Of a DNA stretch of 64,000 nt, positions 9,915-53,260 are shown piece by piece. The notes under the pieces were generated by a model that saw only the letters and a list, made by a program, of their open reading frames with translations, made no database searches and had not been told where the DNA came from. The DNA comes from an uncultured Candidatus Bathyarchaeia archaeon (GTDB taxonomy: Archaea > Thermoproteota > Bathyarchaeia > TCS64), in NCBI GenBank assembly GCA_964589605.1, contig CAZPRN010000003.1, positions 135,733 to 199,732 of the forward strand, read 5' to 3'. How positions within the stretch are numbered: position 1 is the stretch's first letter; the number at the start of each line of letters is the position of its first letter. Both the position numbers and the translations under genes were made by a program.

Positions 9915-10194
9915 TTTCTTTTTCTCTGTTTGAGCAGGGTAATTGTTTCTCCAAGTGTATTCATGTATACTTTACCCAGCAGGATAGCATGTTTTACGAT
10001 AAGGGTGCAATGGTTTTGTGCACTTGAACAAAGATATCCAGCATTTTACTGTTCAAACCCATAATAAGAAAAACGTTTACTCAAACGGCGAATAAGTAGA
10101 GGAAATAAGGAATAGAATTCGGAAATATCTATGATTTTTCTTAACCGTAGAGGTTTTAAACACCCTTCTAATAGTTACTTAGAGGTTCAAACGG

Positions 10195-34384: not shown

Positions 34385-34462
34385 AGCGGGGTAGGGCAGC
34401 CAGGTTAGCCCGTGGGGCTCATAACCCCAAGGTCGGTAGTTCAAATCTACCCCCCGCTACCA
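34385..34462 (+). tRNA. tRNA-Met (CAU), initiator type, with encoded CCA
   Basis: AGCGGGG acceptor stem (A1:U72), GGG/CCC at the base of the anticodon stem, CTCATAA loop and GGTAG-TTCAAAT-CTACC T-arm. Confidence 0.9.
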
Positions 34463-34463
34463 T
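34447..34463 (+). repeat. attL-like direct repeat (tRNA 3' end)
   Basis: CTACCCCCCGCTACCAT, identical to 49250-49266. Confidence 0.85.
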
Positions 34464-34540: not shown

Positions 34541-36193
34541 TTGGAAGAGGTTTTAATTCTACGTTTGAACTCGCAAGCTTCTTTAGAAGCTGTTGTTTTT
34601 GATTATTTAATGGCTCCATGGCATCCAACTCAGAATAAGATATTAGCGGTACTTGGCGATGGTATCCCCAAAACCTCTAGCGAAATTGGACAATTAGCTG
34701 GACTTAGTAGACCATCTGTTTGGAATGCTTTGAAGAGATGTTGGGAAAACGGCTCAGTTTTGCGCTCTGAAAAGCCGTTTTTTGAGAGTGCGAAGAAGTT
34801 TAGGGGAAGGAAAGGTTATCGGAAGAACACCAGGGGTTATTACAAGTATGTACGCAACTTGAAAATGGTAAATAGTATTACACTCGATGGTGCGAGATAT
34901 GTTGCCTACTCTGAAAATCATGTTGATCCTAGGAGTGCTAGAGAGGAGAGCAAAGCCCAACAGATCTTGAAATTCTTAAAAGAGCATCCGGACCAGGCAT
35001 ATTTCTCGAAAGACATTCATGAGTCTTTGAAGGAAAATGGAGTCAAAATGACTGACATTATGCCCACTATTCGCAGATATGACAGTTTAATCTATGTCCG
35101 GGGTTATCGTTCTGAGGACAGGCAAACTCCATTCAGAGAAGGCTATCTACTAACTTGGCTTAATCAAGACTTGCCAAGAGAGAACGCAATACAGGAAGCG
35201 ATAGAGAGAACGGAAAAAGAATTACTGAATAGAAGCACGACCAATCCGGTTATTGAAAGAGTGCATGCGATTAGGGACAGGGTAATTGAGTCGTCAAAGC
35301 TCAGGGAGCTTATCGGTATTTCTTTCTTACAAGGTGAATTGGGACTCACGAAATATGAAATCGAGAACGCGGTTGATAGGGCGATTCAACTCTATCCTGA
35401 TATCAGACAGACGAAGTTGTTTGGCGCTTACAGGTATTTCTACCATAATTCATTGAGCGAAGAGGATTATAATGCAGCTATTGTTATGAAGGAGAATTAC
35501 ATTCGCAAAGTCAAAGGTAGAGCAAATCGTATTGGGCATAATTGGGAGGCTGTTCCTGAGTGGTTTATTGACACTTTTACTACTGGTGCCAGGTTCTGGA
35601 CTCAGGAACATAGAGGAAACAGGATGGACCCAAGAAGGATTACGATTCATCTGATTAAACCAGTTGGAAATCGTAGACGAAATGCTGAGGTTGACAGGGT
35701 TTGGGAAGTAACGCCTGGTGTTTTTGCTCAGCCTATTACATATGTGCTTGAATGTAAATGGGGTTTGGTTAGAAAACGTGATGTAGACGATTTCTTTGAA
35801 GTTTTACGGTGGAGTAAGGATTTTGGAGTAGATACACCCAAGGGAAGACAAGTTAGACAGGGAATAATTGGTGTATTTGCTGGCCAGTCTTTTGATACAA
35901 GGGAAAATGTTAGGCTTGAGGATGGTAGTTCAATAAATTTGCCATCTTATGCTCAGAGAATGAACATCCAATTACTCAAAGCAGTGGACTTTAACCAGAG
36001 ACTACGAGATAAAGGCGTACCTCAATATGTTACAGTTCAGAAAATATGTCGGGCCTCAAAAGACGAAGCAGATGTTAGAGATGCACTGGAGAAGATTTGG
36101 GAGAAGCCAGAAGAAGGTCGAGAGATTCTAGCAGATACAATCAGTCGAAATCAAGAAGTATATGAATTTGAACAGATGTTGGAAACGAAATAG
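34541..36193 (+). CDS. Multi-wHTH protein with C-terminal PD-(D/E)xK (restriction-endonuclease-like) domain
   Basis: wHTH-like KTSSEIGQLAGLSRPSVWNALKR and ILKFLKEHPDQAYFSKDIHESL. The C-terminus has EVDRVWEV...YVLECKWG (D..ExK). Confidence 0.65.
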   Translation: MEEVLILRLNSQASLEAVVFDYLMAPWHPTQNKILAVLGDGIPKTSSEIGQLAGLSRPSVWNALKRCWENGSVLRSEKPFFESAKKFRGRKGYRKNTRGYYKYVRNLKMVNSITLDGARYVAYSENHVDPRSAREESKAQQILKFLKEHPDQAYFSKDIHESLKENGVKMTDIMPTIRRYDSLIYVRGYRSEDRQTPFREGYLLTWLNQDLPRENAIQEAIERTEKELLNRSTTNPVIERVHAIRDRVIESSKLRELIGISFLQGELGLTKYEIENAVDRAIQLYPDIRQTKLFGAYRYFYHNSLSEEDYNAAIVMKENYIRKVKGRANRIGHNWEAVPEWFIDTFTTGARFWTQEHRGNRMDPRRITIHLIKPVGNRRRNAEVDRVWEVTPGVFAQPITYVLECKWGLVRKRDVDDFFEVLRWSKDFGVDTPKGRQVRQGIIGVFAGQSFDTRENVRLEDGSSINLPSYAQRMNIQLLKAVDFNQRLRDKGVPQYVTVQKICRASKDEADVRDALEKIWEKPEEGREILADTISRNQEVYEFEQMLETK

Positions 36194-36222: not shown

Positions 36223-38037
36223 TTATGTTATTTTAACACTATTTTCTAAAATACTCAGGACATCACTAATATCATTTAATACATAGTCTGGCTCCACGTT
36301 AGATTCTTCTTTCCAAACATGCCCATACTTAGCATGTGCTGTAGTAAATCCAGATTTTTTAGCAGGTTCAACATCTCTAGTAAGTGAATCTCCAATTACA
36401 AGAATCTGTTTTTCTGTTAAATCTGGAATATCTTTTTTGAGTTTTCTAAATGCAAATCTGATAGGTAAACCACCAGATTTGGGGCAACCTGTTGTGTTAA
36501 ACCCTATTAAAAATTTGAAATATTTCTCGATCCCCATCGCCATAAGGCGTTGATATGCCTTTGTGTTCGGTGCGTCTGTAACAATTGCTAAGAATATTCC
36601 TATTTTTTCTAACTCTTGTAATGTATTTTCAACATTTGGGTATGGTACAAGATTTTTCGCTTTCAATAACCGGGTTTCATCTAGTACAACAAGCCTCTTT
36701 AGTTGATTCGTTTCGGGCCAATCAGATACTTCATCAAATATCTTCTGCAAACGATCTGTTATATCGGCACGACCATGTGTGTGAACTATACTCAGGTTTC
36801 TATGATCTCTTAACCGGTCAGAAAGAGTCCCATGAGGATCGAAAATAACAACCTCAACATCTTTCTCAAGTGCTTCTTTAACGAGTATTAAGGAAAAAAA
36901 CGATTTTCCTGTTCGTGTTTTCCCAAATATAATGGCGTGACTCGTAAGTATGTCCAAAGGAAAATAGATACGAGATTTAGTAACTTTCTTTTTCACAACA
37001 GAACGAATGACATATCCCAAGAATGCGCTTTTAGGACCATCAATGGATACCTCCTTGGTTGGAATATGGATTCTTTCTTCGATAGTTTCCTCAGTTGGGA
37101 GGTTTAGCGCGGTGGTGAACATTTTCCTTAGGCCGATTCCGATGTCTTTATCGGATTTGAATCCCGCTGCATCTGTAGCTAAAGCTAGACCAAAATACTT
37201 CTTATGTTCTGGAAAAAATGGATACAACTCAGGATTAAAAACAATAACTGGGTCTTTGACATCCGAACAACTCACAAAATAAGTCTTTGAGATCTCCATT
37301 TTCGCGCTGTATTTTCTTCTCTTGATCTCATCAACACAATCGCGGAGATTATCTTTTGGAGTTGTGTAAACATAGAAGAAAAGAGCAGCTGCAAACAATT
37401 TTTCCTTAATAATAAAATACGGTTTCAAATAATCCTGCATCTGGGATTCCAAGGTTTTTACTGAGTTCATGAATTTTCGTGCATAATCTTCCTCTTCTTT
37501 CATTTGTTTTGGGAGAAACTTTGGAAATGGACCACCAAATGTCCCTTGTTGGCCCTTCAAATCTCGTTTAACTTTTTCAGCTTTGTTTTTATGAAACTCG
37601 AAGTTTCGATTAGCCCAATTTCTGCGCCCTTCTAACTTTTCTGGAATATCAGATTCTAAGGTAAATGGTAGATCACTTGTAGTAACTAACACCGCTTTAA
37701 ACAAAGGAGTCCTTGAAAGATGATCTAGGATTCCAGATACTGCACGCCATTGAATGTCTTTTTCAAAACTAAGTCCAAATCTTCTAATGTAGCTCTCTCT
37801 ATTCGTGACCTCTTTCGCGGCCAAGCAAGCTATACCTACATACTTTCCGTCTCTGTGAAGCACACCAATACCGTTTTTCTCGTCCCAATATTGAATGAGA
37901 TTAGAAGAATATTTCACAAGACCTGGAATTACCTCTGCGCCCCTCTGTGTGTGCCCGCCCCAGCTCCCTTCTCCGTACCTCTGTTCAAAGGCCCATCTTT
38001 TCCACTTATTATAGTCATCATAATGGTCCTCAGCCAT
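36223..38037 (-). CDS. 604-aa protein: unknown N-terminal region + P-loop segment + HAD-like C-terminal domain
   Basis: FGKTRTGKSFFSL (Walker A) and VVIFDPHGT (HerA/DUF87-like). Then VVLDETR followed by LAIVTDAP, ..PKSG.. and VIGDSLTRDV (HAD motifs II-IV). Confidence 0.65.
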   Translation of the reverse strand: MAEDHYDDYNKWKRWAFEQRYGEGSWGGHTQRGAEVIPGLVKYSSNLIQYWDEKNGIGVLHRDGKYVGIACLAAKEVTNRESYIRRFGLSFEKDIQWRAVSGILDHLSRTPLFKAVLVTTSDLPFTLESDIPEKLEGRRNWANRNFEFHKNKAEKVKRDLKGQQGTFGGPFPKFLPKQMKEEEDYARKFMNSVKTLESQMQDYLKPYFIIKEKLFAAALFFYVYTTPKDNLRDCVDEIKRRKYSAKMEISKTYFVSCSDVKDPVIVFNPELYPFFPEHKKYFGLALATDAAGFKSDKDIGIGLRKMFTTALNLPTEETIEERIHIPTKEVSIDGPKSAFLGYVIRSVVKKKVTKSRIYFPLDILTSHAIIFGKTRTGKSFFSLILVKEALEKDVEVVIFDPHGTLSDRLRDHRNLSIVHTHGRADITDRLQKIFDEVSDWPETNQLKRLVVLDETRLLKAKNLVPYPNVENTLQELEKIGIFLAIVTDAPNTKAYQRLMAMGIEKYFKFLIGFNTTGCPKSGGLPIRFAFRKLKKDIPDLTEKQILVIGDSLTRDVEPAKKSGFTTAHAKYGHVWKEESNVEPDYVLNDISDVLSILENSVKIT

Positions 38038-38515: not shown

Positions 38516-39481
38516 ATGTGTGCAGACACAACGATAATCGTAGACTCGGACGCTTTTGTTAAAGCAACGTCTCCAAGAAAATTACGTCATAGAGACAAGG
38601 AGAGATCCGAATTATTATCGGGAATGAGAAATTTCGCAAATACTATTCTGGTTGGGGAGTATGGTTCTGGAAAAACGGTTCTGATAAAAACAGTTATGAA
38701 AGAATACAATGATCTCCGAGAAGGCCGGGCAGTCTACATAAACTGCGCAATCTACAGGACCACATACAGTATATTAAAAGAAGTCTTGCCAAAAGGGGAC
38801 CTCATAGTTTATCGAAGTAACTATGAGTTAATTCGAGAACTAAGGAAATACATCAAGGGAAATAAGACCGTCATTGTCCTTGATAATTTCGATCAACTCA
38901 AAGACATGAATCTAATTTCCAGGTTTATGAGTCTAGGAGTCTGTGTTTTCCTACTAACAGACAGTGAGGAGGGTCTTGCTGGGTTGGATACGAATATTCG
39001 TTCCAATATTTCGACGACCTTGGTATTACCAAAATATACTGTAGATCAGACTTTAGATATTCTCAAAACAGTAGCCAGCAAAGCCCTATCAAAGGTTAGT
39101 TTTACTAACGAAATACTCGAAGAGATAGCGAAGAAGACAGAGGGTAATGTAACCTTGGCTCTCAACGTTTTGAAAGCTGCTGCAATGAAGGCTGAGAGTG
39201 AGAAACAGGGGAAAATTGAGAAAAATGACATCAAAGTCGAAGAAGATATTCCTGTAAATGTGTTGAATATTGATCAAAAAATAATAATCGATCTAATGAG
39301 AGAGTGGAAACATCTTCCAGCGAGTCGATTATATCAACTGTATTTGGAAAGAATCACTCATCCTAAAGGGGAAAGGGCGTTCCGAAACTATGTCCATGAG
39401 CTATGTATCAAAGGGGTATTGAAAGCAATTGGAGATAAGAAAGGAAGATTCTACGAGTATATTGAAGATGAAGTAGAGTAA
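38516..39481 (+). CDS. Orc1/Cdc6-family AAA+ initiator-like protein
   Basis: LVGEYGSGKT (Walker A), VIVLDNFDQL (Walker B), YINCAIYRTTYSIL and a C-terminal wHTH (HELCIKGVLKAIGDKKGRFYEY). Confidence 0.8.
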   Translation: MCADTTIIVDSDAFVKATSPRKLRHRDKERSELLSGMRNFANTILVGEYGSGKTVLIKTVMKEYNDLREGRAVYINCAIYRTTYSILKEVLPKGDLIVYRSNYELIRELRKYIKGNKTVIVLDNFDQLKDMNLISRFMSLGVCVFLLTDSEEGLAGLDTNIRSNISTTLVLPKYTVDQTLDILKTVASKALSKVSFTNEILEEIAKKTEGNVTLALNVLKAAAMKAESEKQGKIEKNDIKVEEDIPVNVLNIDQKIIIDLMREWKHLPASRLYQLYLERITHPKGERAFRNYVHELCIKGVLKAIGDKKGRFYEYIEDEVE

Positions 39482-39540: not shown

Positions 39541-40680
39541 TTATACTTGTTGAACAGTTTCGGTTACAAATGTGTTTGTGGTGTTACAGTTTTGTCCTAC
39601 CCTTTTTTCTAACTTCAAATCAATACGTAAACCACACTGATAACAAAATCTTGATCCAGGTACATTTTCAGAATCACATTTTGGACAAATAATAGGTATT
39701 AACATGTTTTTACGAGTCTTTTCAACAGGTTTTTTTCCAGTTAATATACTATGAGCCTCATCAACGTCAGCTTCCTCCATATGAAAGTAGAATTTTGGCA
39801 TATCAGAATCTTCTGTCCATCCAGCAGTCTTTAATAACAACGGATAGGGCAATTGATTTTTCAGCGGATCAATTCGAGAATGCCGGATTAGATATGGCCA
39901 TACATTTTTCTTTATCCCCGCTCGCTTAGCACTTTCCTTAATTATTCCCCTTGCCGATGAATATGCCAATCGTTTTACCTTTTTTTTATTTAATACTGTC
40001 CAAAGTGGTGCATCAGGGTTGTCGGGATCTGGATGATATTCAAGCCAAGAGGTTAACAAAGGTGTAGATATCACAATTCTTGCTGGTGCTCTACCCACCT
40101 TTCCATCAACGTTTAATCGTACTCCCATTTCATCAAACTCTAAATCACCGATGTTCAAGTTTAGAATTTCACCAAATCGTCTCACAGACTCATAATAAAC
40201 CCAAATAAAGGCTCTATCTCTTGGATGTCTAGTGTGCTTGGCCATTTGTTCTATGTCTTCAACAGTTAGAAGGTCTTTTTTACGGATTCTACTTTTGACG
40301 GAACGCTTTACTTTTATCCATTTTACTTGCGCGGGATAGCCGTCCTCACATTCATGAAACCACTTGAAAAAACGTTTTATAACAAGCCTAAAATCTCGTT
40401 TTGTCCATTCCGAATAGGTACTGTTCTCAATGGATGCAATAAAATCAATAACATCTTCCTTTGTAACGTTAGAGAAATCTTTTCCTAATTTCCTTGAAAT
40501 GATCCTGAGGGTTGTTAGATATTTAATTTGTCTAGCAATCCCTACACCCTGTGCAATTATTTCTCGGTGGAATCTAAGAACAGTAACTCGATTCGCTTCA
40601 ACTGTTATTTTTGTATTTACATTTTTAATTTCATTTTCCAATCTTCTTGGATAATTATATACTTCGATGGCATTGTTCAT
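39541..40680 (-). CDS. Tyrosine recombinase/integrase with C-terminal zinc ribbon
   Basis: RDRAFIWVYYESVRRFGEILNL (Arg I), YLIRHSRI (HxxR), PKFYFH (Tyr). C-terminal CPKCDSEN..FCYQCG. The gene is uninterrupted. Confidence 0.8.
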   Translation of the reverse strand: MNNAIEVYNYPRRLENEIKNVNTKITVEANRVTVLRFHREIIAQGVGIARQIKYLTTLRIISRKLGKDFSNVTKEDVIDFIASIENSTYSEWTKRDFRLVIKRFFKWFHECEDGYPAQVKWIKVKRSVKSRIRKKDLLTVEDIEQMAKHTRHPRDRAFIWVYYESVRRFGEILNLNIGDLEFDEMGVRLNVDGKVGRAPARIVISTPLLTSWLEYHPDPDNPDAPLWTVLNKKKVKRLAYSSARGIIKESAKRAGIKKNVWPYLIRHSRIDPLKNQLPYPLLLKTAGWTEDSDMPKFYFHMEEADVDEAHSILTGKKPVEKTRKNMLIPIICPKCDSENVPGSRFCYQCGLRIDLKLEKRVGQNCNTTNTFVTETVQQV

Positions 40681-41018: not shown

Positions 41019-41360
41019 TCAAATGAGTTTGACTTCGTTATTAACGATGAATATTGAAACGTCCATTTTTTCAAGGGGGAATGTAATTTGTTCAACGTAT
41101 CGTTCATATGATTTTGTGACTGCTAAAGCATACTTCTTATTATCACTTCCATCCATCGTTCGCATTAATTGGAAAATGGCGGTACCTAAATCAACGGAAA
41201 GAGCCTTTGTATCACCTTTCATTTCGATTATTAGTTGAATCCCATTTCGTTCCGCAATTATATCCGGCCCTCTCTGATGCCCGATACTTTTCGAAATAAT
41301 TCGATAACCATTAGAATTTAGATATTTTATCATTGGATCAAACATTTCATTTTCTTTCAA
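41019..41360 (-). CDS. Small PD-(D/E)xK nuclease, Hjc-like (Holliday junction resolvase-like)
   Basis: ..NGYRIISKS..GPDIIAERNGIQLIIEMKG closely parallels the Hjc core (..PDIIA..NG....IEMKS). Confidence 0.5.
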   Translation of the reverse strand: MKENEMFDPMIKYLNSNGYRIISKSIGHQRGPDIIAERNGIQLIIEMKGDTKALSVDLGTAIFQLMRTMDGSDNKKYALAVTKSYERYVEQITFPLEKMDVSIFIVNNEVKLI

Positions 41361-41436
41361 ATGAATTACCTTGTGCTAAGAATATAGATTCGAAGCTGAA
41401 AAATATAATATCTACCGCATTATTTTCTTAATAATC

Positions 41437-43464
41437 TCAGGCTTTCACCACTGAAATCCCGTTGTTTTTCTCAACTCGATAGATATGGTCTGCAAAGCTC
41501 TCTAATTCCCTTTCATGAGAAACTAGAATCACTTGTGGGCATTTGAGTTCGTTTAGTATATCTCTAACTTTGTAAAGTTGTTCCTTGCTAAATCCGTCAG
41601 TAGGTTCGTCCAAAATTAACAAGTTTGACTTCATTCCAGAGGATACTTTCTGGACAAGACTGTTCAAAGATAACCTATATGCCAGAGCGACGCTTGTTTT
41701 CTCTCCACCACTGAGATACTGAAGGTCCTGTTCGTACCCATCTTGTTCAACAATTGGTGTAAAGTCCTCATCAATCCTAGCATCTTTGGTTGTGTCCTCT
41801 ACTAATATTCCAAACCATTCTCTGAATTTTTCGTTGAACTCTTCATTAATACTGGCAAGAACACTGGTTTCAATTAAGGATATAGTGGGAATGAAATACT
41901 CTCGAATCCAAACAACATACTCATAAAGTTTTTCCGATTGCAGTTTCTTCTTTTTCTTTGTTTCAATTGTCTTAACTAACTCTACTAAAAATTGTTCAGA
42001 CTTGTTTATACTTTCTCTGAGTGCAGAGAGGTCACCTGATATCTTTTTAATAGATGCTTCTTTCTTTTTGTCCTGACCCATTAAATTCTTTATTTCCAGT
42101 TCTAATTCCTTAAGCTGTTCGTGCTTTTTCTTGGCTCCTTTCACGAAGCTTTTATCATCTTTTACTTGCACACCTAGTTCCTTAATCCGTTTTTTTGACT
42201 CAGTGATGCTATCTTGATGACCTCCAAATTGTTTTTCAAGTTTCTCCAAGTCTTCCTGAGCTTTCTCGTAATCTTTAAGTTTCTTCAGGAGCTCGTTTGC
42301 GTTCTTCTTGCTTTCTTCGAGGGCTTTTAATTCGGTCTCAAGCTTCTTTTTTTCTGATTCCTTACTTTTAACCTTGTCTTTGAATTCCTTTGGATCGGCG
42401 GGTCTATCACATGTAGGACAGGTTCCTTTCTCTTCAACGGTTTTATATTCCTCAATTTTACCATCCAAAGCGCCCTCTCGTCTTCGAAGTTTTCTATCCT
42501 CTTTGTCTATTTCTTTTATTTCAGAATCAATATCATGAGTGGTCTTTTCTGTTGGCTTTGTAATTTTCTTTAAATTATCTATCTCTATTTTGGCTTTATC
42601 AGCTTCTTTCTCAGTCTCCTCCACAACCTTATCAAGTCGGTCAATCTCTTTTTCATTAACTGTGATTTGCTTCTCGATAACAGGTATCTTCCCAGCCACT
42701 TCAGTTAGTTGTAATCTTTTTTGTCTCTTTTTCTCTATATCTGCCTGAATTTTCTCACGCTCTTTTGATTCGTCTTTTTCCTTTTTTTCAAGGGGTAAAA
42801 TTCTTTTCTTATCTTTTGTTATTTCCTTCGCTGAATCAATTTTCTTTGTTTCGTCTTCTTTTAATCCACCAGAAGCTCCCTTGAACTCTATAGCCTTCTT
42901 TTCAATCTCTTTGTAAAGTAAGGAGGCATTATCTGCTGTGATTTTGTAATCCTCAATTCTGAACGCTTTTCTAAGAGTCTGAAGTCGCTTTTCTGCATTT
43001 TCAGATATGATTGATTTCATTTCTTCTTGGGGAGTGAATATTGCATAAGTGAAAATCACACTTTTAGCACGAGGTGCTGTTGGTTCGTTAAAATTTAAAA
43101 TGTCCAAGATTTTTGGCTTCAACTCAGAAGGTGATAGTGGAAGTTTACCTTGAGAATCAGTAATATAACAACCATTGCTTGATTGAGAAACTCTGGTCCT
43201 TGCTCTTTTCAGTCTTCTTTGAACTTCATATTTTTCTCCGTCAACTGAAAAACCAAGCCTCACAATTCCATCTTTTTCACCTGTCCTCATTAGAGAATTG
43301 CCTTTAATCCCCCCAAGACCAAATAGCGCAAACTCAATGGCCATTAGTATAGTTGACTTGCCTGAACCGATATCACCTTCAAATAATGAGGTACCAGTCT
43401 GAAAATCTAATTCTAGTTCTTGGTAGCTTCTAATATTTTTCAGATATAGTGAGTTTAAGATCAT
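41437..43464 (-). CDS. rad50: Rad50/SbcC-type SMC ATPase (675 aa)
   Basis: GDIGSGKSTIL Walker A, long Lys/Glu-rich coiled coil, central CPTCDRP zinc hook, LSGGEKTSVALAYRL signature, LLILDEPTDG Walker B and VSHE. Confidence 0.9.
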   Translation of the reverse strand: MILNSLYLKNIRSYQELELDFQTGTSLFEGDIGSGKSTILMAIEFALFGLGGIKGNSLMRTGEKDGIVRLGFSVDGEKYEVQRRLKRARTRVSQSSNGCYITDSQGKLPLSPSELKPKILDILNFNEPTAPRAKSVIFTYAIFTPQEEMKSIISENAEKRLQTLRKAFRIEDYKITADNASLLYKEIEKKAIEFKGASGGLKEDETKKIDSAKEITKDKKRILPLEKKEKDESKEREKIQADIEKKRQKRLQLTEVAGKIPVIEKQITVNEKEIDRLDKVVEETEKEADKAKIEIDNLKKITKPTEKTTHDIDSEIKEIDKEDRKLRRREGALDGKIEEYKTVEEKGTCPTCDRPADPKEFKDKVKSKESEKKKLETELKALEESKKNANELLKKLKDYEKAQEDLEKLEKQFGGHQDSITESKKRIKELGVQVKDDKSFVKGAKKKHEQLKELELEIKNLMGQDKKKEASIKKISGDLSALRESINKSEQFLVELVKTIETKKKKKLQSEKLYEYVVWIREYFIPTISLIETSVLASINEEFNEKFREWFGILVEDTTKDARIDEDFTPIVEQDGYEQDLQYLSGGEKTSVALAYRLSLNSLVQKVSSGMKSNLLILDEPTDGFSKEQLYKVRDILNELKCPQVILVSHERELESFADHIYRVEKNNGISVVKA

Positions 43465-44723
43465 GAGAACACCTCATTCAATCCGAGTGATTCAAGTGCC
43501 TCTTCTAATAATCGAGTTGTGTAATCACCTTTTTTCTCATCAATCTTTATGTTTTGTCTAAGTGTTCCAAGTAATTTTTCGGCAACTTTTGCTCCTTTAT
43601 CTCCCTTAAGGTCCTTGACGGATACCGTAATATTTCCAATGTTTTCTCGTAAAAGTTTCTTCTCAATTGAAGGCACATCTTCACCCGAAACTTTCACGGC
43701 CTCAAATTCCTTCGAAGACAAACCATATTTATTAACATCAACAAACTGTGCGCCGTTTGTAAGGAGCATGTTCTTAAAGTTCCAAGTTTTTATTTCAGAG
43801 GTTTTACCACCTGAAAGTTCTCCTTTAATTTTAAGTAGAACAATTTTATCTTGAACGTCCAACTCACCGAGCTTTTTCTCAATTTCACCATTAGCTTTGA
43901 TAGAGTTTTTCCCTAATACATCGAATTCAATATACTTTAGCTTCTCCGGTCCGAATAGCTCAATGAATTTTGTGTTTTTCACCTTATCATCAAAATCAAC
44001 AATGTAAAATCCCCGTTTTTCACCTTTGGCTGTTTGTTCAAGGTCTCTTGCATAACCACTGAAAATGGGTCCAGGGAATACTATTTTGTCATATCCAGGT
44101 AATTTCTCTTCAACTCGTTGATGGATGTGCCCACCTGCATAATAATCAAATCCTTTAGGTAAGAATGAAACAGGAATTGAGTCCATAGCTGCCAAGTGAG
44201 GTGGTTTGAATTCAGTCAGACCCGCGTGAAAACAAAAGATTTTGAACCCATCCTCATTCTCTAAAGTCTCCCTGTCAAGTATCTCAAAATACGCTTTTTC
44301 TACTCCACCTTTCCTGGCGTTGATCCCAACTAATTTTGCCTTAGTTTTTTGGTCAACTACAAAATCAAGGGCGATTTTTCCTCCTTCTGCGTCTCTCCCC
44401 TGTACAACATTTTTGATTAGACCTGCGCTCTCTAGAATATTGATTATCGAGTCCGAGTTCGGATTATAATCATGACTGCCAAATATTACATAAATAGGAA
44501 TCCCGTTATCATGAACTTCTTTGAACTTCTTCACACAGTTATTCACTACACCCATGTCTGGGATTCCAATATGGAATATGTCTCCAGAAATCAGGATAAA
44601 ATCGACCTTTTCTTCAATACATCGTCCCAGAGCATCGTTAAATTTCTCACGTTCTATTATCTCAAGTGAAGGGTGTCGATTTGCCCCAAGGTGTAGGTCT
44701 GCCAAATGAGCGAATTTGAACAT
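43461..44723 (-). CDS. mre11: Mre11/SbcD-type nuclease
   Basis: FAHLADLHLG, SGDIFH, FGSHD, FCFHAG and GGHIHQ phosphoesterase motifs. ATGA overlap with rad50. Confidence 0.85.
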   Translation of the reverse strand: MFKFAHLADLHLGANRHPSLEIIEREKFNDALGRCIEEKVDFILISGDIFHIGIPDMGVVNNCVKKFKEVHDNGIPIYVIFGSHDYNPNSDSIINILESAGLIKNVVQGRDAEGGKIALDFVVDQKTKAKLVGINARKGGVEKAYFEILDRETLENEDGFKIFCFHAGLTEFKPPHLAAMDSIPVSFLPKGFDYYAGGHIHQRVEEKLPGYDKIVFPGPIFSGYARDLEQTAKGEKRGFYIVDFDDKVKNTKFIELFGPEKLKYIEFDVLGKNSIKANGEIEKKLGELDVQDKIVLLKIKGELSGGKTSEIKTWNFKNMLLTNGAQFVDVNKYGLSSKEFEAVKVSGEDVPSIEKKLLRENIGNITVSVKDLKGDKGAKVAEKLLGTLRQNIKIDEKKGDYTTRLLEEALESLGLNEVFS

Positions 44724-44728
44724 TTATT

Positions 44729-46255
44729 TTACCTCATTATCACTTTTTCAGCTTTTTTTTCTGTGCCTATAGACTCTCCAATATAATCCTCAAACTTGGG
44801 AATATGCACGGGAACAGCAAATTTGGTGAAGGTGCTACTTACAATGGCCTCACCTTTGTCTAAGCTAGCAATTGCCCGATCATCACTTGATAGGTCTTGA
44901 CATGCGCTATCAATAACTGCTTTTCGTTCTGCAGCCATTTCGTTTCCAAGGATTATTTTTGTATTTAGGTTTGCTAGTACTTCTCTTGGTATTAGACTTG
45001 TCAATTGAGTAATTGCTATTATGCCAACTTTGAACTTTCTACCCTCTCTAGCAATTGTATTATAGATGTTGTCACCAGCTACCAGAGATTCTGAGCCAAG
45101 TACTCTTGGTGCTTCTTCGATTACGACTGATACAATTGGCTTATCTTGAAGAGTTCCTTCCGATTTATAATTCTGATATCTCCAAAAAATGTTACCCGCT
45201 ATCATGCTACCGATTAGTAGTTCAGCTTGATCCATTAACCGTGAAGTATCAATGATTACAGTTTTACCAGATTCAAGTGCTCGAACGATATCTGCAATTG
45301 TTGTGGAACCCGCAGTTGCACTAAATACTAGATTTCTGCAAATTAGCTCACCGTCTTTGATGTAAATACCCAGTACACTATTGAATTTTCTCTGAAGAAC
45401 CTGTAAAGTAATCGGTCTTACCGAATCTATCACAGCTCCGCGAACAATATTCTCAATCCATTCATTGCCAAATTCAGAATAGTAAACGGACAACGCATCT
45501 TTTTGTGCAGGAGTGAACTGGATTAGATCGGTCAGATTACCAGGTAAAATTGAGTTAAGATTTATAACAAGTGTATTCCCGCCTTGTGGAGGTGAAGGAG
45601 AATAATATATTACATTCTCTTTTGCCTCTGGGTGGTCTTTTAGACCTATACTATGTCTGCCATAATATTCATCATGGGGGTCTAAAACTAGAATACCAAA
45701 TTTGCTACTTGGGAGTGAGCTCCAAAGCATTACCTTGACAAGGTTGCTCTTTCCTCTCCCTGTTGTTGCTGGAATGAGGACATGATGTCTAAGCATATCT
45801 TCACCGTTAAGATAAACAGGAACTTCGAGAGTCTTTGAGCCGCTACGTACATCTCCTAAATAAATGGGGTCAGATGGTTTAGTTAAAAATGCAAGATCAT
45901 CTTTGCTTATTGTTTGAACAGAGCTAAAGAAAGGTGGGAGTATTTTTGGCATTTTTGGTTTATTATTTTGAATGGTTAAGACGGCTTTAACAGATGCAAT
46001 GATGTAATTTCTTAAAGCGGGGTCCATGAAATCTAAATCCCCGGTAAATCCTTCGAGTTTCATTCCCGATATCATTTCAAGCTGTTTAGATCCAATTTGA
46101 CTCCCAAACTTTAGGTCATAGACCTGTAGAATAGAATAACTAGTTTCATCATGATCAACCCTTAGAAGGTCTCCCATTTCGATACTTGATCCACTTTTCT
46201 GTCTGATTATAATCTGACCATGAGAGCCAGCTATTACGGTTCCAATTACATCCAT
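44729..46255 (-). CDS. herA: HerA-type hexameric helicase/translocase
   Basis: N-terminal barrel ([15 protein letters not shown]), [13 protein letters not shown] Walker [13 protein letters not shown] Walker B and IAITQLTS. Confidence 0.85.
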
Positions 46256-46257
46256 TT

Positions 46258-47412
46258 TTAATCACCCATTAATTTGTTTAAGAAATCGTGTGCATCTGTC
46301 GTTTTCAGGCATTTTTTAAGACGATCAAGAACACCTGAACTACTAGCACATGAAAGGAATTGTAGATTTTGGCCCATTTTTTCAGAGCCAGTCACTCTAG
46401 CGAACTTGTCTGCATCTATCAAACCATATGGATAACCTGGAAAAGCAGGGTCACTTGCGTTTTTAGAAAGCGAACAAATATACTTTTCAATTTCAGGATT
46501 ACCCTTTTTCAATGCTTGTTCCTTTAGGAACTCCAAACGGAATACATAGTCTGAACTTGGATGAAGTCTTACTGCGTACATTTCAGCACGATGATCTGGT
46601 TGTTCTATGTTTACTATAGGATGATAATACCATGCATCTTTTTCAAGACCAGTCTCCGTGACTAATTCTGCGATTGCAGCAAGAAGCGGATATCCAGTTG
46701 TAGTAAACAACGTTGATGTTTTTGATAACCCAACAAGTAATACGTCTTTTTCCATGGCCTTAGCCATTACTTCATTTGAATAGATTCTTTCATTAGTAAC
46801 GGTTGTCTGAAGAGTGCCATCACGGATTACTGCATCTCCTTCATCCATTTCATAATCTATCATCAAACCAGCTACCTTCCATTCAGCAAACTTTCTTGAT
46901 GTCTCAGCAATTCTACCAATAGGAATTCTAAAAGACCCGCTCATCAGGGTTGGGTCAAATGAGTAGAATTTTAAATCTTTTACATCGGGTAGATAACCGG
47001 CCCATTCCGGTTTTATTGGCACTAATTCAGTCTCATAAAATATTTGACCATTTTCTGCTGTTGCATAGCATATCGTGTAAAATTCAATTCTTTGTGGAAG
47101 ATGACGGGGGTTCAACCTAACACCATCTCTAAAAATGTTAAAGAAGACTCTTGTAAGATGAACAGAGATATTTGATGATTCGTAAATAGGGGCATTTCCA
47201 CCATCCACATAGCCAAATTTGTTTCTAGATTCCATCTTTTTGATTAATTGAAAATGATCCTTTGAGAACTCATGCGGAGTATACCTATCGTCAGCGAAAC
47301 TCGGTTGACCAATTGGCATCTGAGTTATTTTTTCACTTAATCTGTCAATGACTCTTTGGATAGGTAGCATCCTAGGAACCTCCATCTCTATTTCTTTTTT
47401 AACTTTCAACAT
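46258..47412 (-). CDS. nurA: NurA-type 5'-3' nuclease
   Basis: GYVDGGN, VIRDGTL and LVGLSKTS motifs typical of NurA. 2-nt gap to herA. Confidence 0.7.
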
Positions 47413-47642: not shown

Positions 47643-49190
47643 GTGGCGTTGAAAAATATATCGAGTAAATCTCAGCTTACACCAATTGGGAAATTGGACC
47701 AATGCCCGCACTGTGATACTAATTTAGATAAAATTCCAAAACGTAAGAAAAAATGCCCTCATTGTGGAGATTATATTTTTGTCAGGACAAGACCTCTTGA
47801 TAGAAAAAAAGTGCTAGTTACAGAAAAACAGAAAAGCGATGTAGAACGGGAATGGAACAGGTATTACGAAGAAAAGGAATATTCTCAATTATTACAAGAC
47901 GAGGAATATCAAAAAGAGAAAAAAAGCCTTTTTTCAGAATTGGGAAGAGACCCTACGCTAGCTGAATTGAAAACTAGTGTTCTGGAAAATCAAATGTTAG
48001 AATACACCTCAAAAAGACAATGGGGATTGTATAGAAATTGTATTTTAGAGATTTCTGAGACTTTAAAAAAGGAAGGAAAACTAGAAGAAGCGCTAAATTC
48101 ATTCTTTCAGGTCTGTTATCTTGATGTTAATGGCGCTAACAATGTAATGACAACAAACGGAAAAGCAATGTCATATACAAAGTCTGAAAAAATGGGAATC
48201 TTGGATTTTGATACAAAGTTTGCTTTCTTTGCACCTGCGATTATAACTTACATTAGAAATTTGATTTCTGAAATAAATCTGTCTGAGGATGAGGCTAGAA
48301 CATTATTTATCAAAACGAATGAAAAGTCAAAACCTATTGAAAAAATGCCTGTAAGTCCTGATGATGCATGGGTTCAATTAAAATCAAAAATTGAGGACGA
48401 TAAAAAAATTGACGCTTTTGACGTTTCAAACCAGACTCAAGTAATCAAGGAAATTGATACATTAATTAAACAAAATAAAATGAATGATCTAAAAAAACTA
48501 TTACTGAAAGTTAGATCCCTTTACAAATCAAAAAAATACAAGATTGAAAATGTTGACGAGGTAAAATCATTCATCATTAATTTAATGGATTCAAAAAACA
48601 GAAACATATCCCATCAGGGAGAAACCCTAATGTTAACAGTGCTTAAGAAAGATGAAATAAAATTCAAAAGCTTAGCGAGTCATTATGTAACGAAATTCAA
48701 AAATGACTTTTCCGAACAAATCGAATCACACACAATTGGCCAATTAGGAGCCATAAATGTTGAATTAATTAAACCACTAATACCACTCTTAAAAGAAACC
48801 ATTAGAAATTCTAAAGAATGGAATACAAGACGATTTGCCGCGTTTAACCTAGGTCGAATTGCAGAAAAACAACCTGATCTAGTAGGCGATATAATTCCCG
48901 TGATGATTGACTACATAAAGAATCCATTTGAAGTAACTATCCGGGATCCAGTAAAGATCGAGACATCAATTGGAACAATAAGTTGGGATATGTCGGTTGA
49001 AAAAATGATGGGGGTAGACCAAAAACAATGGTTGAAAGATGCATACATAGACACTCTTGGAATGTTTGCGAAGGGGGATAAACAATTGATATTTTCATAT
49101 CGCTCTTTGATTGAGATAATTGCCAAAAGTGATAAAAGTGAATATTCTCGAAAAAAAGCACAAAAAGTACTTGATCTCTTAGATAAATAA
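47643..49190 (+). CDS. Zinc-ribbon + alpha-helical (HEAT-like) repeat protein, unknown function
   Basis: CPHCDT..(x12)..CPHCGDY at the N-terminus. The C-terminus EWNTRRFAAFNLGRIAEKQPDLVGDIIPVMIDYIKNP is HEAT-like. Confidence 0.6.
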   Translation: MALKNISSKSQLTPIGKLDQCPHCDTNLDKIPKRKKKCPHCGDYIFVRTRPLDRKKVLVTEKQKSDVEREWNRYYEEKEYSQLLQDEEYQKEKKSLFSELGRDPTLAELKTSVLENQMLEYTSKRQWGLYRNCILEISETLKKEGKLEEALNSFFQVCYLDVNGANNVMTTNGKAMSYTKSEKMGILDFDTKFAFFAPAIITYIRNLISEINLSEDEARTLFIKTNEKSKPIEKMPVSPDDAWVQLKSKIEDDKKIDAFDVSNQTQVIKEIDTLIKQNKMNDLKKLLLKVRSLYKSKKYKIENVDEVKSFIINLMDSKNRNISHQGETLMLTVLKKDEIKFKSLASHYVTKFKNDFSEQIESHTIGQLGAINVELIKPLIPLLKETIRNSKEWNTRRFAAFNLGRIAEKQPDLVGDIIPVMIDYIKNPFEVTIRDPVKIETSIGTISWDMSVEKMMGVDQKQWLKDAYIDTLGMFAKGDKQLIFSYRSLIEIIAKSDKSEYSRKKAQKVLDLLDK

Positions 49191-49249: not shown

Positions 49250-49266
49250 CTACCCCCCGCTACCAT
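49250..49266 (+). repeat. attR-like direct repeat
   Basis: CTACCCCCCGCTACCAT, identical to the tRNA-iMet 3' end at 34447-34463. Confidence 0.85.
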
Positions 49267-49704
49267 TTCTATAAAAACAAGCGAGGGTTCAATTTCGATC
49301 CCCAGTATATCGATAGCTTAATTGAGTTATTAACACCGTCTTTTTGAAATTAATTTGAACAGCGGTCTGTACAATAGAAGTTGCCATAGATTTCATGAGA
49401 GCAGTGTCCATTTTGTCCAGCATGTCCAGTATTGGTATTCTATATACAAATTTACTTATTTTCATATTGGGTATATGGACCCTGGACATCTGGGACATAA
49501 AGGACACTCCTTGGTTTCTAACTCCATTTGTTAACAAGTCACTGGTTTTGATACTCAAATCTCATTCTACGTCTATTATACTTCTTCTTATGATTCACAT
49601 CTGATGTTCCAAATCGCGCTCGCGTTGTCAGATATTTAGTTCTATGGAATTAGGACATACAGACTTATGTTGACCTTTACGTGACCTTTAATCGTGGATA
49701 AAAG

Positions 49705-50289
49705 ATGAAAATCTCCTTGAAGGGTATCATACTCTTCCTCATCCTCACAGGATTTATACTACGAATAATGAGTTTAGCCTGGACCTCCCCTTTCCACCTA
49801 ATACGAGAATATGAGACACCATTCATCATTCAAGGTTTCATCATCGTGCTGATTCTCCTAGGATCTATACTCCTCGTTCGTCTCCTTCCTAGGGAATTTT
49901 TTGAGAAAACACGGAAAAAATACTCTATTACCCGTATTTTCACAGTTGGAGAGAAGACACTCGCAGTTATCTGGGTATTTACATTGGTATTATCACTATT
50001 CTCACCCATGATTGCTGGAATCTACAGATTTCTCATCATAGTTTTCCTCGCGATGGTAGGAGTTCCCTTCATGTGGTACGTCCTACGAGAGGAGAAAAGT
50101 GGGGACCAAGGTGAAATCGGTATTTACCCAGATACTGTTACGCGGATTCACCCGGACGACTTGGACGACTACTACAGGTATCAATCAGTTTTCACACCGG
50201 ATTATGATGATTACCTAATGAGACTCAAAGAAAAACATGACAAAAGAAAAAAACAACTATCGAAAGAAGACGACGAAAACGAACTATAA
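49705..50289 (+). CDS. Membrane protein (4-5 TM helices) with acidic/basic C-terminal tail
   Basis: Hydrophobic helices, then DDLDDYYRY..KEKHDKRKKQLSKEDDENEL. It lies in still-AT-rich DNA beyond attR. Confidence 0.5.
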   Translation: MKISLKGIILFLILTGFILRIMSLAWTSPFHLIREYETPFIIQGFIIVLILLGSILLVRLLPREFFEKTRKKYSITRIFTVGEKTLAVIWVFTLVLSLFSPMIAGIYRFLIIVFLAMVGVPFMWYVLREEKSGDQGEIGIYPDTVTRIHPDDLDDYYRYQSVFTPDYDDYLMRLKEKHDKRKKQLSKEDDENEL

Positions 50290-50600
50290 CGTTCAATATC
50301 ACATCATTTAGGGATCTCCATGAAGCAGGAGCGTATAGTCGGCAATACTATATGGAGTAGAAGGAGGGAATCATCGCTAATATGCAGATTATCGGTTCCA
50401 ACGAAATGATTGAACAGCACTAATTAGTGTCAGAGAACAACAAAACCAAATCATAGCTGCTACCGTGCAGTTTCTCGAGTCGATTGGGTGACATAATTCT
50501 TCCAAAAAATGTATTTAGGTATTCATAAGTATTGGACCAGGTCTGCCTTTAATTTAATATTAACCCCCCATTGAACACCATCCACCCAAGTTTACTCTAC

Positions 50601-52151
50601 CTATCCGTGTTTCAGGTTCTTCAAACTCAATGCGGATGGCGCTAAGGCAATACCTCCAAGGGCTGTACATCTGAGCTCTCTAGGAAGCATTTTTCCCACT
50701 GACATTACTGCATCGATAGTCTCGTCTAGAGGAATAGGGTTAATGTACCCCCCCATAACAAGATCAGCGCAGACGAAAGCTGACGAAGCCGCAAGAGCAT
50801 TCCTAGTATGACAAGGAATCTCCACCATGCCTTGGACAAGGTCACACACAGACCCCATTGTATTTTGGAAGGCAATAGCCGCTGCATTACTAGCTTCCTC
50901 TGCTGTTCCTCCGGCCGCCTCTACAACCGCTGCTGCACCCATTGCGCCGGCCGCTCCTATCTCAACCTGACACCCAGCAACTTCAGCTGCAAAAGTACCC
51001 TTAGTAGATAGAATCAAGCCAATTGCAGAGGCAGCGAACATTGCATGAGCTATCCTCTCCTTACCAAGTCCTTTCTCCTCCACAAGTGTGGTGAATACAC
51101 CTGGGAGTGTACCAGCAGCCCCACCTGTTGGGGCAGCACAGACCACACCCATGCTACTATTGACATGCATGACAGCCAAAGCTCTAGTCGCGGCTCTGGT
51201 ATGCAGTCCGCCAGTGAACAATCTACCATTTTTTTCACTTTCCATTATCTCACCTGCTGTTGGAGTAAGTAGCTGCATGCCTTCCTGTAGCTTCAATCCA
51301 TTCTCGACCCCGGATTTCATCAATAAATACCTCTTGTACATCTCGTCAATGGCTTGTTGCCTCGATATACCAAGCAAGGTGGATTCGTAAATTAGTGATA
51401 CCTCGCCTAAAGATTTAGTGTGCCTTGATGCATATGCCACCATTTCCTCGGAACTCGTGAATAATGCCTTGCCAATGAGAGAATGGAAGAAAGGAGTGAT
51501 AATCCAAACTCGTGACACTCCATCAGTCTCTCTAAGCTTATTTTGAATATCAATGCTAGAGGATTCGCTACTTTTCTGGACTATTAAGGAAATTTCCCCC
51601 TTGGTGACATCAGTTAATGAGATTATTCCCTTGACTCTGCTTAGCTCTTGTTTAATGATGTTGATTTTACTCGTTTCAGCCTCCACAAGAATCTCATGGG
51701 AGTCGCCAGTGATGTGGACGGGCCAACTGTTAAACTCGTCAACCTGTACAGCTCCACCACCAATAGATTTTGCAAAAAGGTCTATCGTAGAACCGTGTTT
51801 TGAAGAGCCAGTAATGTGGATGGTGTTGGGATGGACCTCACGTTCGAACTCTTCTATTTTGAACTGGATATCTACACCATTGTTGGCTGCGAAATCTAGA
51901 GCATTTTCGAACCCGCTGGTGATAATCTCATTACCCATTATGCCCGTGGCGAACCCTAAGTCACTACCTTGCTGTTGATACACTTCTGCATAGGACCCTT
52001 TTTTAACAAAACCGATAACTACGTGCTCTGGATGCCCGTTCAATAAGTCTCGAATTATTTTCCCAAGATGAAACGAAGCAGCTGTATGTGAACTTGATGG
52101 TCCCCTCATGATAGGCCCAAGAACCTCATTGAAGATACTCACCTTCTTCAT
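50601..52151 (-). CDS. sdaA: Iron-sulfur L-serine ammonia-lyase (serine dehydratase, fused chain)
   Basis: IFNEVLGPIMRGPSSSHTAAS near the N-terminus and a Gly/Ala-rich C-terminal alpha domain with conserved Cys. The internal MKKVS start avoids overlap with the upstream gene. Confidence 0.75.
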   Translation of the reverse strand: MKKVSIFNEVLGPIMRGPSSSHTAASFHLGKIIRDLLNGHPEHVVIGFVKKGSYAEVYQQQGSDLGFATGIMGNEIITSGFENALDFAANNGVDIQFKIEEFEREVHPNTIHITGSSKHGSTIDLFAKSIGGGAVQVDEFNSWPVHITGDSHEILVEAETSKINIIKQELSRVKGIISLTDVTKGEISLIVQKSSESSSIDIQNKLRETDGVSRVWIITPFFHSLIGKALFTSSEEMVAYASRHTKSLGEVSLIYESTLLGISRQQAIDEMYKRYLLMKSGVENGLKLQEGMQLLTPTAGEIMESEKNGRLFTGGLHTRAATRALAVMHVNSSMGVVCAAPTGGAAGTLPGVFTTLVEEKGLGKERIAHAMFAASAIGLILSTKGTFAAEVAGCQVEIGAAGAMGAAAVVEAAGGTAEEASNAAAIAFQNTMGSVCDLVQGMVEIPCHTRNALAASSAFVCADLVMGGYINPIPLDETIDAVMSVGKMLPRELRCTALGGIALAPSALSLKNLKHG

Positions 52152-52216
52152 TGTCCAAACCCTACTGTATTTTGGAGGGATTATATATTTCAAGTAGTGG
52201 GGGCCATCTGAATGAG

Positions 52217-53182
52217 CTAATGAGTCCTCCACACTTTATCTGTCCCAGCCAATTCCTCCTCAATTATTTTCTCTAAATCACCAGTACCATAGATCTGAAC
52301 AAGCTCCTCCTCACTGAGTGCCTCAATCTCCATTTTTCTCCACTTGTTGATACCCACAAGATCATTGAACTCAGCCCAAGAGACACCCATCTCAGATATC
52401 GTCCGTATATTTCTCCCATGTCTAAGCTCATCAAGTGCATCAACCATTGCCTTTGCTGCCGGGTACAAACAGATCATCGGGACAGAAACATATCTAACAC
52501 CTCGATTCTCTAACTCCTCGAAAGTAAACGGAGGAGTCTTACCACCAGGAATAACATTGAACGCCAACGGTGCCGGAACCTGATCCACAAGCTTCCCTAC
52601 TTCATCCAGACTCTGAGGAGCCTCTACATATACATAATCAGCACCAGCCTCAGCATAGGAAACAGCCCGATCCAACGCTTCATCAAATCCAAGAACCGAC
52701 CTCGCATCGGTACGAGCCCCAATCGCCATATCAGGAGCCTCAGCATCCCTCGTCTTCACCGCAGTCTTGACTTTCTGCAACATCTCAGAAACAGGAATCA
52801 CCTGTTTCCCAGCAAGATGACCACAACGCTTCGGCCAAACTTGGTCCTCAAACCTTATGCTCGCTGCCCCAACCCGGGCAAAGTTTAACGTTGTCCAGTG
52901 AGCATTTAGCGCGTTCCCATACCCTGTATCCACATCAACATCAACGGGTAAATCAACCGCGTTAACAATAGTTCGCGTGCGTTCAACCATCTCATGGTAG
53001 CCTATAAGACCCATATCAGGCTGTCCAATGAGTGACGAAGAAATACCATACCCAGTTGTTCCAACAATATCAAACCCAGCCCTCTGGATTAAGAGGGCGG
53101 ATAACGCGTCATAGGCGCATGGGCGGAGGTGAAGCCCCTTGCTGTTGATAATCTCCTTGAACCGCTTGCCTTTAGATGCCAT
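52217..53182 (-). CDS. Isocitrate lyase/PEP mutase-family enzyme (methylisocitrate lyase / carboxy-PEP mutase-like)
   Basis: AYDALSA..AGF..TG, DVDTGYG and IRFEDQVWPKRCGHLAGK motifs. The MASKGK start was chosen to leave a divergent promoter region. Confidence 0.75.
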   Translation of the reverse strand: MASKGKRFKEIINSKGLHLRPCAYDALSALLIQRAGFDIVGTTGYGISSSLIGQPDMGLIGYHEMVERTRTIVNAVDLPVDVDVDTGYGNALNAHWTTLNFARVGAASIRFEDQVWPKRCGHLAGKQVIPVSEMLQKVKTAVKTRDAEAPDMAIGARTDARSVLGFDEALDRAVSYAEAGADYVYVEAPQSLDEVGKLVDQVPAPLAFNVIPGGKTPPFTFEELENRGVRYVSVPMICLYPAAKAMVDALDELRHGRNIRTISEMGVSWAEFNDLVGINKWRKMEIEALSEEELVQIYGTGDLEKIIEEELAGTDKVWRTH

Positions 53183-53260
53183 GAGTAGAACTCTAGTCAA
53201 CGGTATTAGTAAATTGGCTCCCGGGTAGCTGTTTAATACCTCACTGAACGAGTTTAGCAT

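Follow-up and report, generated by a model that had tools for sequence, protein, structure and literature searches.

In archaea, NurA, HerA, Mre11 and Rad50 are as a rule regarded as essential housekeeping proteins that are passed on vertically. The stretch of DNA analyzed here, a 64,000-nucleotide (nt) segment of contig CAZPRN010000003.1 from an uncultured Bathyarchaeon (hereafter "the window"), contains an intact set of their genes, arranged as a nurA-herA-mre11-rad50 cassette, that lies on a mobile element genuinely integrated into the genome and bounded by repeats of the 3′ end of a tRNA-iMet gene. The operon is of a known type and the element of a known class; their combination was not found reported in the literature searched. 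The cassette is probably a horizontally mobile end-resection module that travels as cargo of the element and serves the cell, in repair, in a RecBCD-like attack on linear DNA, or in both. An intact copy riding as cargo on an integrative element provides a concrete vehicle for the horizontal spread of the operon, and such a spread would account for the patchiness of its phylogeny and for the intermixing of taxa in it.

The integrated element and its target tRNA

The element is a plasmid-like island of 14.8 kb that extends from 34.5 to 49.3 kb of the window. Its boundaries, its integrase and its putative initiator are the following.

34385–34462, plus strand: tRNA-Met(CAT) gene, the integration target (ARAGORN)
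34447–34463, plus strand: left attachment site (attL), a 17-nt exact core (CTACCCCCCGCTACCAT) constituting the 3′ end of the tRNA (repeat search)
38516–39481, plus strand: Orc1/Cdc6-like AAA+ ATPase of 321 amino acids (aa), a putative replication initiator (TIGR02928 at 67 bits, below its cut-off; Cdc6_lid)
39541–40680, minus strand: intact tyrosine integrase of 379 aa with a C-terminal zinc ribbon (Pfam Phage_integrase and Zn_Ribbon_1)
49250–49266, plus strand: right attachment site (attR), where the 17-nt core (CTACCCCCCGCTACCAT) recurs within a wider repeat of 26 nt that is 85% identical

Reading of the tRNA sequence reveals the features of an initiator, namely an A1:U72 pair and three G:C pairs (GGG/CCC) closing the anticodon stem. 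The 16-mer of the att core occurs exactly twice in the window and has no further match at up to three mismatches, while an exact 17-mer match is expected by chance about 2e-6 times in 30 kb; a coincidental repeat, which the first-pass annotation of this DNA had named as an outcome that would undo its reading, is thereby largely set aside. The integrase is recognized by Phage_integrase with 43 bits (cut-off 27.1).

The composition of the island is foreign to its surroundings. Its guanine-plus-cytosine content (GC) is 0.37 as opposed to 0.51 in the host DNA and, at third codon positions (GC3), the cassette genes (0.28–0.33) and the other genes of the island (0.27–0.38) fall into the same range, whereas the flanking host genes have values of 0.62–0.69. 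Likewise, the tetranucleotide profile of the cassette correlates with that of the element backbone (0.94) and not with that of the host (0.11), the correlation between island and host ranging from 0.04 to 0.11. Cassette and backbone thus share one composition, the former making up 43% of the length of the element. The presence of a tyrosine recombinase, of att repeats, of a distinct and shared composition and of an initiator unaccompanied by virion genes assigns the island to the tRNA-integrating cryptic elements, and the identical element is present in several independent assemblies.

The island was also examined for viral and plasmid affinities. No PHROG match to a capsid, portal or terminase was found on it. 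A viral origin was rejected, as IMG/VR contained no relatives of HerA, of the integrase or of the DUF87 protein described below, the INPHARED phages offered no HerA match and the PHROGs revealed no virion genes. A known plasmid was rejected as well, PLSDB having yielded only distant bacterial HerA-like proteins with 24–30% identity.

The closest described counterparts are the cryptic integrated elements of Thaumarchaeota, which target tRNA genes, bear an integrase, are devoid of a capsid and encode a Cdc6/Orc1 initiator that presumably recruits the replisome of the host (Krupovic et al. 2019, PMC6563490); the same survey mentions no Rad50, Mre11 or NurA cargo (PMC6563490). The element of the window possesses all these features and differs from them in having a Bathyarchaeon as its host, in bearing an extra DUF87 ATPase (truncated here) and in its end-resection cargo.

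The diphthine synthase (Dph5) gene that flanks the island points to a Bathyarchaeal host, as all its named relatives belong to Bathyarchaeota or Bathyarchaeia. A related Bathyarchaeon (locus L183; Dph5 85% identical, nucleotide identity ~79%) retains synteny up to the same tRNA, where the island is absent and the right flank is rearranged. About 800 nt beyond the tRNA of this locus, its 3′ end recurs as a 39-nt copy (L183:8724–8762 and L183:9548–9625), the pair enclosing a single open reading frame (ORF) of 174 aa. What is left here probably goes back to another integration event at this tRNA, and the second copy of the tRNA end therefore marks it as a recurrent integration site in the lineage. 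Taken together, the att core, the GC and tetranucleotide data and the L183 locus bear out the earlier claim that the cassette lies within an AT-rich element, between tRNA-iMet repeats and next to an integrase and an Orc1/Cdc6 gene.

No precise empty site was recovered, the contigs reached through the two flanking host genes being either occupied or truncated. Host-only contigs obtained from two other samples (L006 and L008) break off at one and the same base, 34444, which lies within the tRNA, 3 nt ahead of the att core. The shared end suggests a branch of the assembly graph, i.e., variation within the population, and its position misfits a simple attL/attB branch.

The operon, its family and its mobile relatives

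The genes of the cassette, together with the small gene that follows them, are listed in the order of transcription.

46258–47412, minus strand: NurA, 384 aa (Pfam PF09376, 34.4 bits, cut-off 21)
44729–46255, minus strand: HerA, 508 aa (DUF87, 98.5 bits)
43461–44723, minus strand: Mre11, 420 aa (Metallophos, 53.6 bits)
41437–43464, minus strand: Rad50, 675 aa, with a short coiled coil (AAA_23, 65.6 bits)
41019–41360, minus strand: minimal PD-(D/E)xK nuclease of 113 aa (catalytic E3, D33, E46 and K48)

The ORF listing agrees to the base with the five co-directional minus-strand frames described in the first-pass annotation and with their couplings, which consist of a 2-nt gap between nurA and herA, a 5-nt gap between herA and mre11, a 4-nt ATGA overlap between mre11 and rad50 and a 76-nt gap between rad50 and the 113-aa ORF. 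The identities proposed there for the four large genes are upheld by Pfam, by the best NCBIfam matches and by matches to PDB sequences. NurA contains the motifs VDGGN, IRDGT and DADKFAR, its acidic motifs being conserved in 88 relatives, and no sequence match to it was found in the PDB. HerA has Walker A (TGRGKSN), Walker B (VVIEEA) and an arginine finger (REGRKF) and can be aligned to Sulfolobus solfataricus HerA (4d2i, E = 2.4e-20); Mre11, whose best PDB match is Pyrococcus furiosus Mre11 (E = 1.8e-25), displays motifs I–V as DLHLG, GDIFH, GSHD, FHAG and GGHIH; and Rad50, matching P. furiosus Rad50 with E = 3.6e-28, has Walker A (GSGKST), FTPQEE, the CPTC zinc hook, LSGGE, ILDEPT and VSHE. 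Hence all the catalytic motifs named earlier are present and conserved throughout the family, with the single amendment that motif III of Mre11 (residues 82–85, window 44474–44485) reads GSHD instead of the canonical GNHD. Since GSHD is invariant in 115 of 115 relatives, it represents a signature of the family and not damage.

The best NCBIfam matches are archaeal equivalogs whose cut-offs are far from being reached (92 vs 800 bits for HerA, 100 vs 600 for Mre11 and 177 vs 700 for Rad50) and the proteins are therefore members of a divergent, distinct subfamily and not orthologues of the characterized ones. Judged from their sequences, nurA, herA, mre11 and rad50 form an intact operon of a distinct and widespread subfamily, recognizable by its short Rad50 and by the GSHD of Mre11, that has no characterized member.

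The family is large: 3,139 relatives of HerA were found at E < 1e-5, hundreds of them with 60–65% identity. Of these, 80 genome loci and 80 metagenome loci among the matches listed were sampled, the closest relatives being added by exact look-up. None of the genome matches reached 100%; either the host is not among the GTDB representatives that matched or its representative lacks the element. All four genes are present in 69 loci, with a median Rad50 length of 675 aa, and in 66 of these they have the order nurA-herA-mre11-rad50 on the same strand within a span of <7.5 kb. The gene order, which had been taken to be unusual, is therefore the norm and is not evidence of foreignness; it differs only from the case of Sulfolobus and Pyrococcus. 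With the herA-mre11-rad50-nurA operon of these organisms the cassette has in common the same four families, all catalytic motifs, the tight coupling and the zinc hook of Rad50, whereas it departs from it in the order of the genes (nurA-herA-mre11-rad50), in a Rad50 shorter by ~200 aa, in the GSHD of Mre11 and in being carried on a mobile element.

Loci with the operon are spread over Bathyarchaeia, Nitrososphaeria, Asgard archaea (Freyarchaeota) and Methanobacteriaceae and include chromosomes of megabase scale, the chromosomal copies of Bathyarchaeia being 60–65% identical in HerA to that of the window. In most chromosomal loci the GC of the cassette is within ~0.03 of that of its flanks; the contrast found in the window (−0.134) is the most extreme among 54 comparable loci.

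In a neighbour-joining tree of 149 HerA sequences, the window groups with six loci (L097, L095, L178, L182, L180 and L096) at 67–84% identity. An integrase is located within 10 kb of the cassette in five of the seven members of this clade and in eight of the 142 other loci (Fisher p = 4e-5), so that the survey of close homologs proposed in the first-pass annotation did yield an enrichment of integrases. The nearest relatives occupy mutually unrelated contexts that look mobile or defence-like, as follows.

L097: cassette, small gene with an RNase H fold and, in the same position, an integrase 66% identical to that of the window
L096: cassette, Orc1-like gene, zinc-ribbon integrase, AIPR gene and methyltransferase gene
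L178: integrase gene adjoining nurA on its upstream side, with many small ORFs lacking a Pfam match ahead of it
L095: direct repeats of 58 nt (39 nt exact) at 8667–8724 and 17773–17830, around a 9.1-kb unit
L182: at 8765–10973, after the cassette, an adenine methyltransferase of the D12 class and an additional NurA, a shorter paralogue of 334 aa (31 bits with Pfam NurA)

The 9.1-kb unit of L095, in which the cassette is accompanied by an ORF of 118 aa and a family-B DNA polymerase of 635 aa, is possibly another kind of mobile unit endowed with the cassette. Scanning of the related loci for tRNAs revealed no tRNA-linked att sites there.

All four proteins rank their relatives in the same order and the cassette therefore evolves as a co-inherited unit. 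That it also moves as a block follows from two further cases. Two cassettes (L067 and L072) are present in the complete 2.31-Mb Euryarchaeota chromosome OY970393.1, where 87% nucleotide identity extends over an exact 6.0-kb block and nothing outside of it is shared; in L036 the cassette, together with a gene of the prokaryotic Argonaute (pAgo) type, constitutes a discrete block of GC 0.54 within DNA of GC 0.36–0.43 that contains Orc1 and integrase genes.

Possible functions of the cassette

Whether the cassette belongs to the machinery of the element or is transported by it can be judged from three loci (L184–L186) with the same backbone, i.e., an integrase 51–53%, an Orc1-like ATPase 37–39% and a DUF87 ATPase 53–56% identical to those of the window. 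NurA, Mre11 and Rad50 are absent from all three. The backbone, consisting of zinc-ribbon integrase, Orc1-like protein and DUF87 protein, thus exists without the cassette, which is therefore cargo and would be dispensable for replication and integration of the element. The DUF87 counterpart in the window is the following.

36223–38037, minus strand: 604-aa chimera of a DUF87 ATPase and a partial HAD hydrolase (Pfam; alignment to L184–L186)

The proteins of L184–L186 are 546–548 aa long and align to residues 6–502 of this chimera, in which the DUF87 ATPase is preserved up to and including Walker B (LVVLDETRLLKAKNLV) and then gives way, at a junction placed by the alignment, to a partial HAD hydrolase (without motif I) in lieu of the arginine-finger region. 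The HAD part has a GC of 0.33, the DUF87 part of 0.39.

The reading that we consider probable is that a mobile end-resection module works for the cell that harbors it. In this view, an element with Orc1 and integrase genes, integrated at the 3′ terminus of the initiator tRNA gene of its Bathyarchaeal host, has the cassette aboard as accessory cargo. If the proteins behave like their characterized homologues, Mre11-Rad50 would bind and trim DNA ends and a HerA hexamer would feed the duplex to the NurA nuclease, the outcome being either 3′ tails suitable for RadA-mediated recombination or the full degradation of linear DNA. The cassette could in this way supplement or replace the double-strand-break repair of the host and destroy linear foreign DNA in a RecBCD-like manner, and the element would gain through the fitness of its host. 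The likeness to bacterial RecBCD is one of function only, an end-dependent helicase-nuclease engaged in both repair and degradation of invaders, which in bacteria also feeds pAgo and CRISPR, the proteins being unrelated.

Several points weigh against this reading. The functions attributed to the cassette derive from homology to characterized proteins with 25–35% identity, and the equivalog cut-offs are missed. The Asn of Mre11 motif III is a metal-binding residue in P. furiosus Mre11, and with Ser in its place the activity could differ from that of the characterized models. The HerA tree by which the clade is defined has no support values. Were the set in the window the sole one of the host, "accessory" would be wrong and "mobile" would still be valid. 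Finally, the element may be partly decayed, given its truncated chimeric DUF87 ATPase, and the cassette might ride along without being under selection at present, a possibility countered by its intact motifs.

A more specialized role comes into consideration because of what accompanies the operon elsewhere. In ten loci a pAgo gene (~760–790 aa) immediately precedes nurA, from which it is separated by small gaps and with which it shares the strand.

L096:4150–6447, L180:2713–4989, L036:5461–7839, L031:6573–8858 and L059:6653–8872: full-length pAgo
L097, L156, L029, L099 and L089: partial pAgo copies

All five full-length copies match the PADLOC pAgo model PDLC02436 (best E = 1.6e-49; L096, 7.6e-44) and a profile built from them matches VbAgo in the PDB. 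Residues D520, E555, D599 and H701 are invariant in the pAgo copies and, in the alignment, are spaced like a putative DEDH slicer tetrad. The arrangement pAgo-NurA-HerA-Mre11-Rad50, present in related loci and not in the window, looks like an operon as far as the sequences can tell. It is encountered in three of the seven members of the clade of the window and in seven of the 142 other loci (p = 0.007), and L096 and L180 have in addition AIPR, N6/N4 methyltransferase and Imm5/MazE-like (toxin-antitoxin) genes as neighbours. No pAgo was detected in the window by tblastn with three pAgo queries, a 515-aa gene holding that position. Cooperation between pAgo and RecBCD has been reported in bacteria and the adjacency seen in the sister loci parallels it. 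In the literature searched there was no paper linking pAgo to NurA, HerA, Mre11 or Rad50, nor one in which integrated elements of archaea carry the operon as cargo, an absence that does not prove novelty. As a lead, the operon combining pAgo with end resection is more exciting than the feature of the window itself.

Next to its integrase, which is of the same backbone family, L184 has at L184:2899–9634 a cluster that encodes a TIR_2 protein, a helix-turn-helix protein, a nuclease of the PDDEXK_1 type and a protein of 790 aa without Pfam match. This cluster looks like defence-type cargo in the slot that is held by the cassette in the window.

On these grounds the mobile clade might be a dedicated module of defence or exclusion that destroys the linear DNA of invading viruses or plasmids, with pAgo making or using guides, the copy in the window being a pAgo-less nuclease barrier. 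We consider this a serious, if distinctly less probable, rival to the reading given above. The linkage to pAgo in L096, L180, L097, L036 and six more loci, its enrichment in the clade, the AIPR, methyltransferase and Imm5/MazE-like neighbours, the TIR_2 and PDDEXK_1 cargo of the sister backbone and a match of Rad50 over its full length to the PADLOC model of LmuB (PDLC03859, 119.8 bits) speak for it; on the other hand, the PADLOC matches reflect the generic similarity of ABC/SMC and HerA ATPases, the window contains no pAgo and none of the partner proteins of known defence systems built on HerA or SMC, IMG/VR, PLSDB and INPHARED gave no relatives in a context of conflict, and most genomes have the same operon on the chromosome, with native composition and without pAgo, which fits repair. 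A known defence system in the window was rejected: the prediction by PADLOC, suggested in the first-pass annotation as a check, returned only generic ATPase matches (LmuB, HerA, mad3 and mad8) and no LmuA/LmuC, Sir2, DUF4297 or pAgo, hence no complete known system. A bolder form of the proposal, for which we would claim no more than a tentative place, is that the mobile clade constitutes an undescribed archaeal defence system in which a catalytically competent long pAgo and the NurA-HerA-Mre11-Rad50 operon are spread together on Orc1/integrase elements, the machine making guides from the ends of invaders or finishing the targets cut by pAgo, and the window holding a pAgo-less derivative.

It is very improbable that the cassette serves the element itself, be it in recombination-dependent replication, in processing of the excised form or in end protection, in the manner of T4 gp46/gp47. 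Mobile elements with their own Mre11-Rad50-type nuclease do exist, as exemplified by phage T4 gp47/gp46 and by the SbcCD-like families of PHROGs that match Rad50 (SbcC-like, E = 2.6e-43) and Mre11 (SbcD-like, 1.6e-13); besides, the cassette accounts for a large share of the element and has its composition, and the linkage between cassette and integrase is retained in L097. However, the phage systems lack HerA-NurA and serve linear genomes, whereas the carrier in the window is an integrative element of circular type with relatives that do without the cassette (L184–L186). Furthermore, an initiator of the Orc1/Cdc6 type implies origin-dependent replication of a circle devoid of free ends, and the identical operon functions in chromosomes of dozens of lineages.

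The remaining alternative, an ordinary housekeeping operon lying in low-GC DNA next to a fortuitous att repeat, is hardly tenable, for although the operon type fits the phylum of the host, whose chromosomal copies in Bathyarchaeia have the HerA identities given above, and no precise empty site came to light, it is confronted with the exact 17-nt repeat of the tRNA 3′ end, the adjoining intact integrase, the extreme GC contrast, the island-free syntenic tRNA of L183 and the unrelated contexts of the nearest relatives.

Thus, of the two roles envisaged in the first-pass annotation, replication of the element has been weakened by the backbones that lack the cassette, while defence has gained circumstantial support from the pAgo, AIPR, methyltransferase and toxin-antitoxin neighbours of the related loci. 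In archaea, as is the case with RecBCD in bacteria, end-resection machines may combine linked functions in repair and in conflict, and the recurrent adjacency of pAgo and nurA renders this link directly testable. For the annotator, finding these genes in a metagenome-assembled genome (MAG) is no proof of a native repair capacity.

The small nuclease and other features of the island

The 113-aa protein encoded downstream of rad50 had been regarded as an Hjc-like fifth member of the cassette. Across 38 sequences its catalytic residues D33 and E46 never vary, while conservation reaches 90% or more for E3 and K48. Only 76 representatives of this rare family were found among 1.84 billion, and in the loci of the cassette's relatives there is no homologue beside any other cassette. 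With Hjc it shares the PD-(D/E)xK fold and the E...D...ExK pattern, but the Pfam Hjc score remains under the cut-off (17.1 vs 21.1 bits) and its relatives give weak, scattered matches to Mrr, UPF0102, Hjc and NucS, Hjc being hit weakly in four of 38. The alignment-based structure model (predicted local distance difference test, pLDDT, 96.5) finds its best fold match in XisH, the fdxN element excision-controlling factor (2okf and 2inb), with a template modeling (TM) score of 0.65–0.66, as against only 0.33–0.46 for the Hjc structures; as for XisH, the PD-(D/E)xK fold is shared and the TM score is the best one, but there is no Pfam XisH match. The identification as Hjc was therefore rejected, and with it the view of a conserved fifth cassette gene. 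The gene is a variable add-on and, since it lies just upstream of the integrase, more likely a member of the recombination module of the element than of the repair machine.

The integrase itself belongs to a small family of 67 proteins. Its closest member (P0321, 72% identity) is annotated as deriving from a Candidatus Hodarchaeales (Asgard) MAG and resides on a 2.9-kb contig, so that either the element family crosses phyla or this contig has been mis-binned.

Two further genes are located near the ends of the island.

34541–36193, plus strand: element protein of 550 aa with a weak N-terminal winged-helix match (Pfam), without homologue in any fetched locus
47643–49190, plus strand: element protein of 515 aa with weak zinc-ribbon and HEAT-like matches, divergent from nurA in orientation and in the slot taken by pAgo in close relatives

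In the C-terminal part of the 550-aa protein, a D...ECK-type motif (...VLECKWG...) resembles that of another PD-(D/E)xK domain, a reading of the sequence without profile support.

The DNA to the right of attR (49267–53260) is compositionally atypical too, with a GC of 0.39 up to 50600 and a GC3 of 0.43–0.46 for the genes of a 194-aa protein, a serine dehydratase and a PEP mutase, vs 0.67–0.68 further to the right; this segment may be older acquired DNA.

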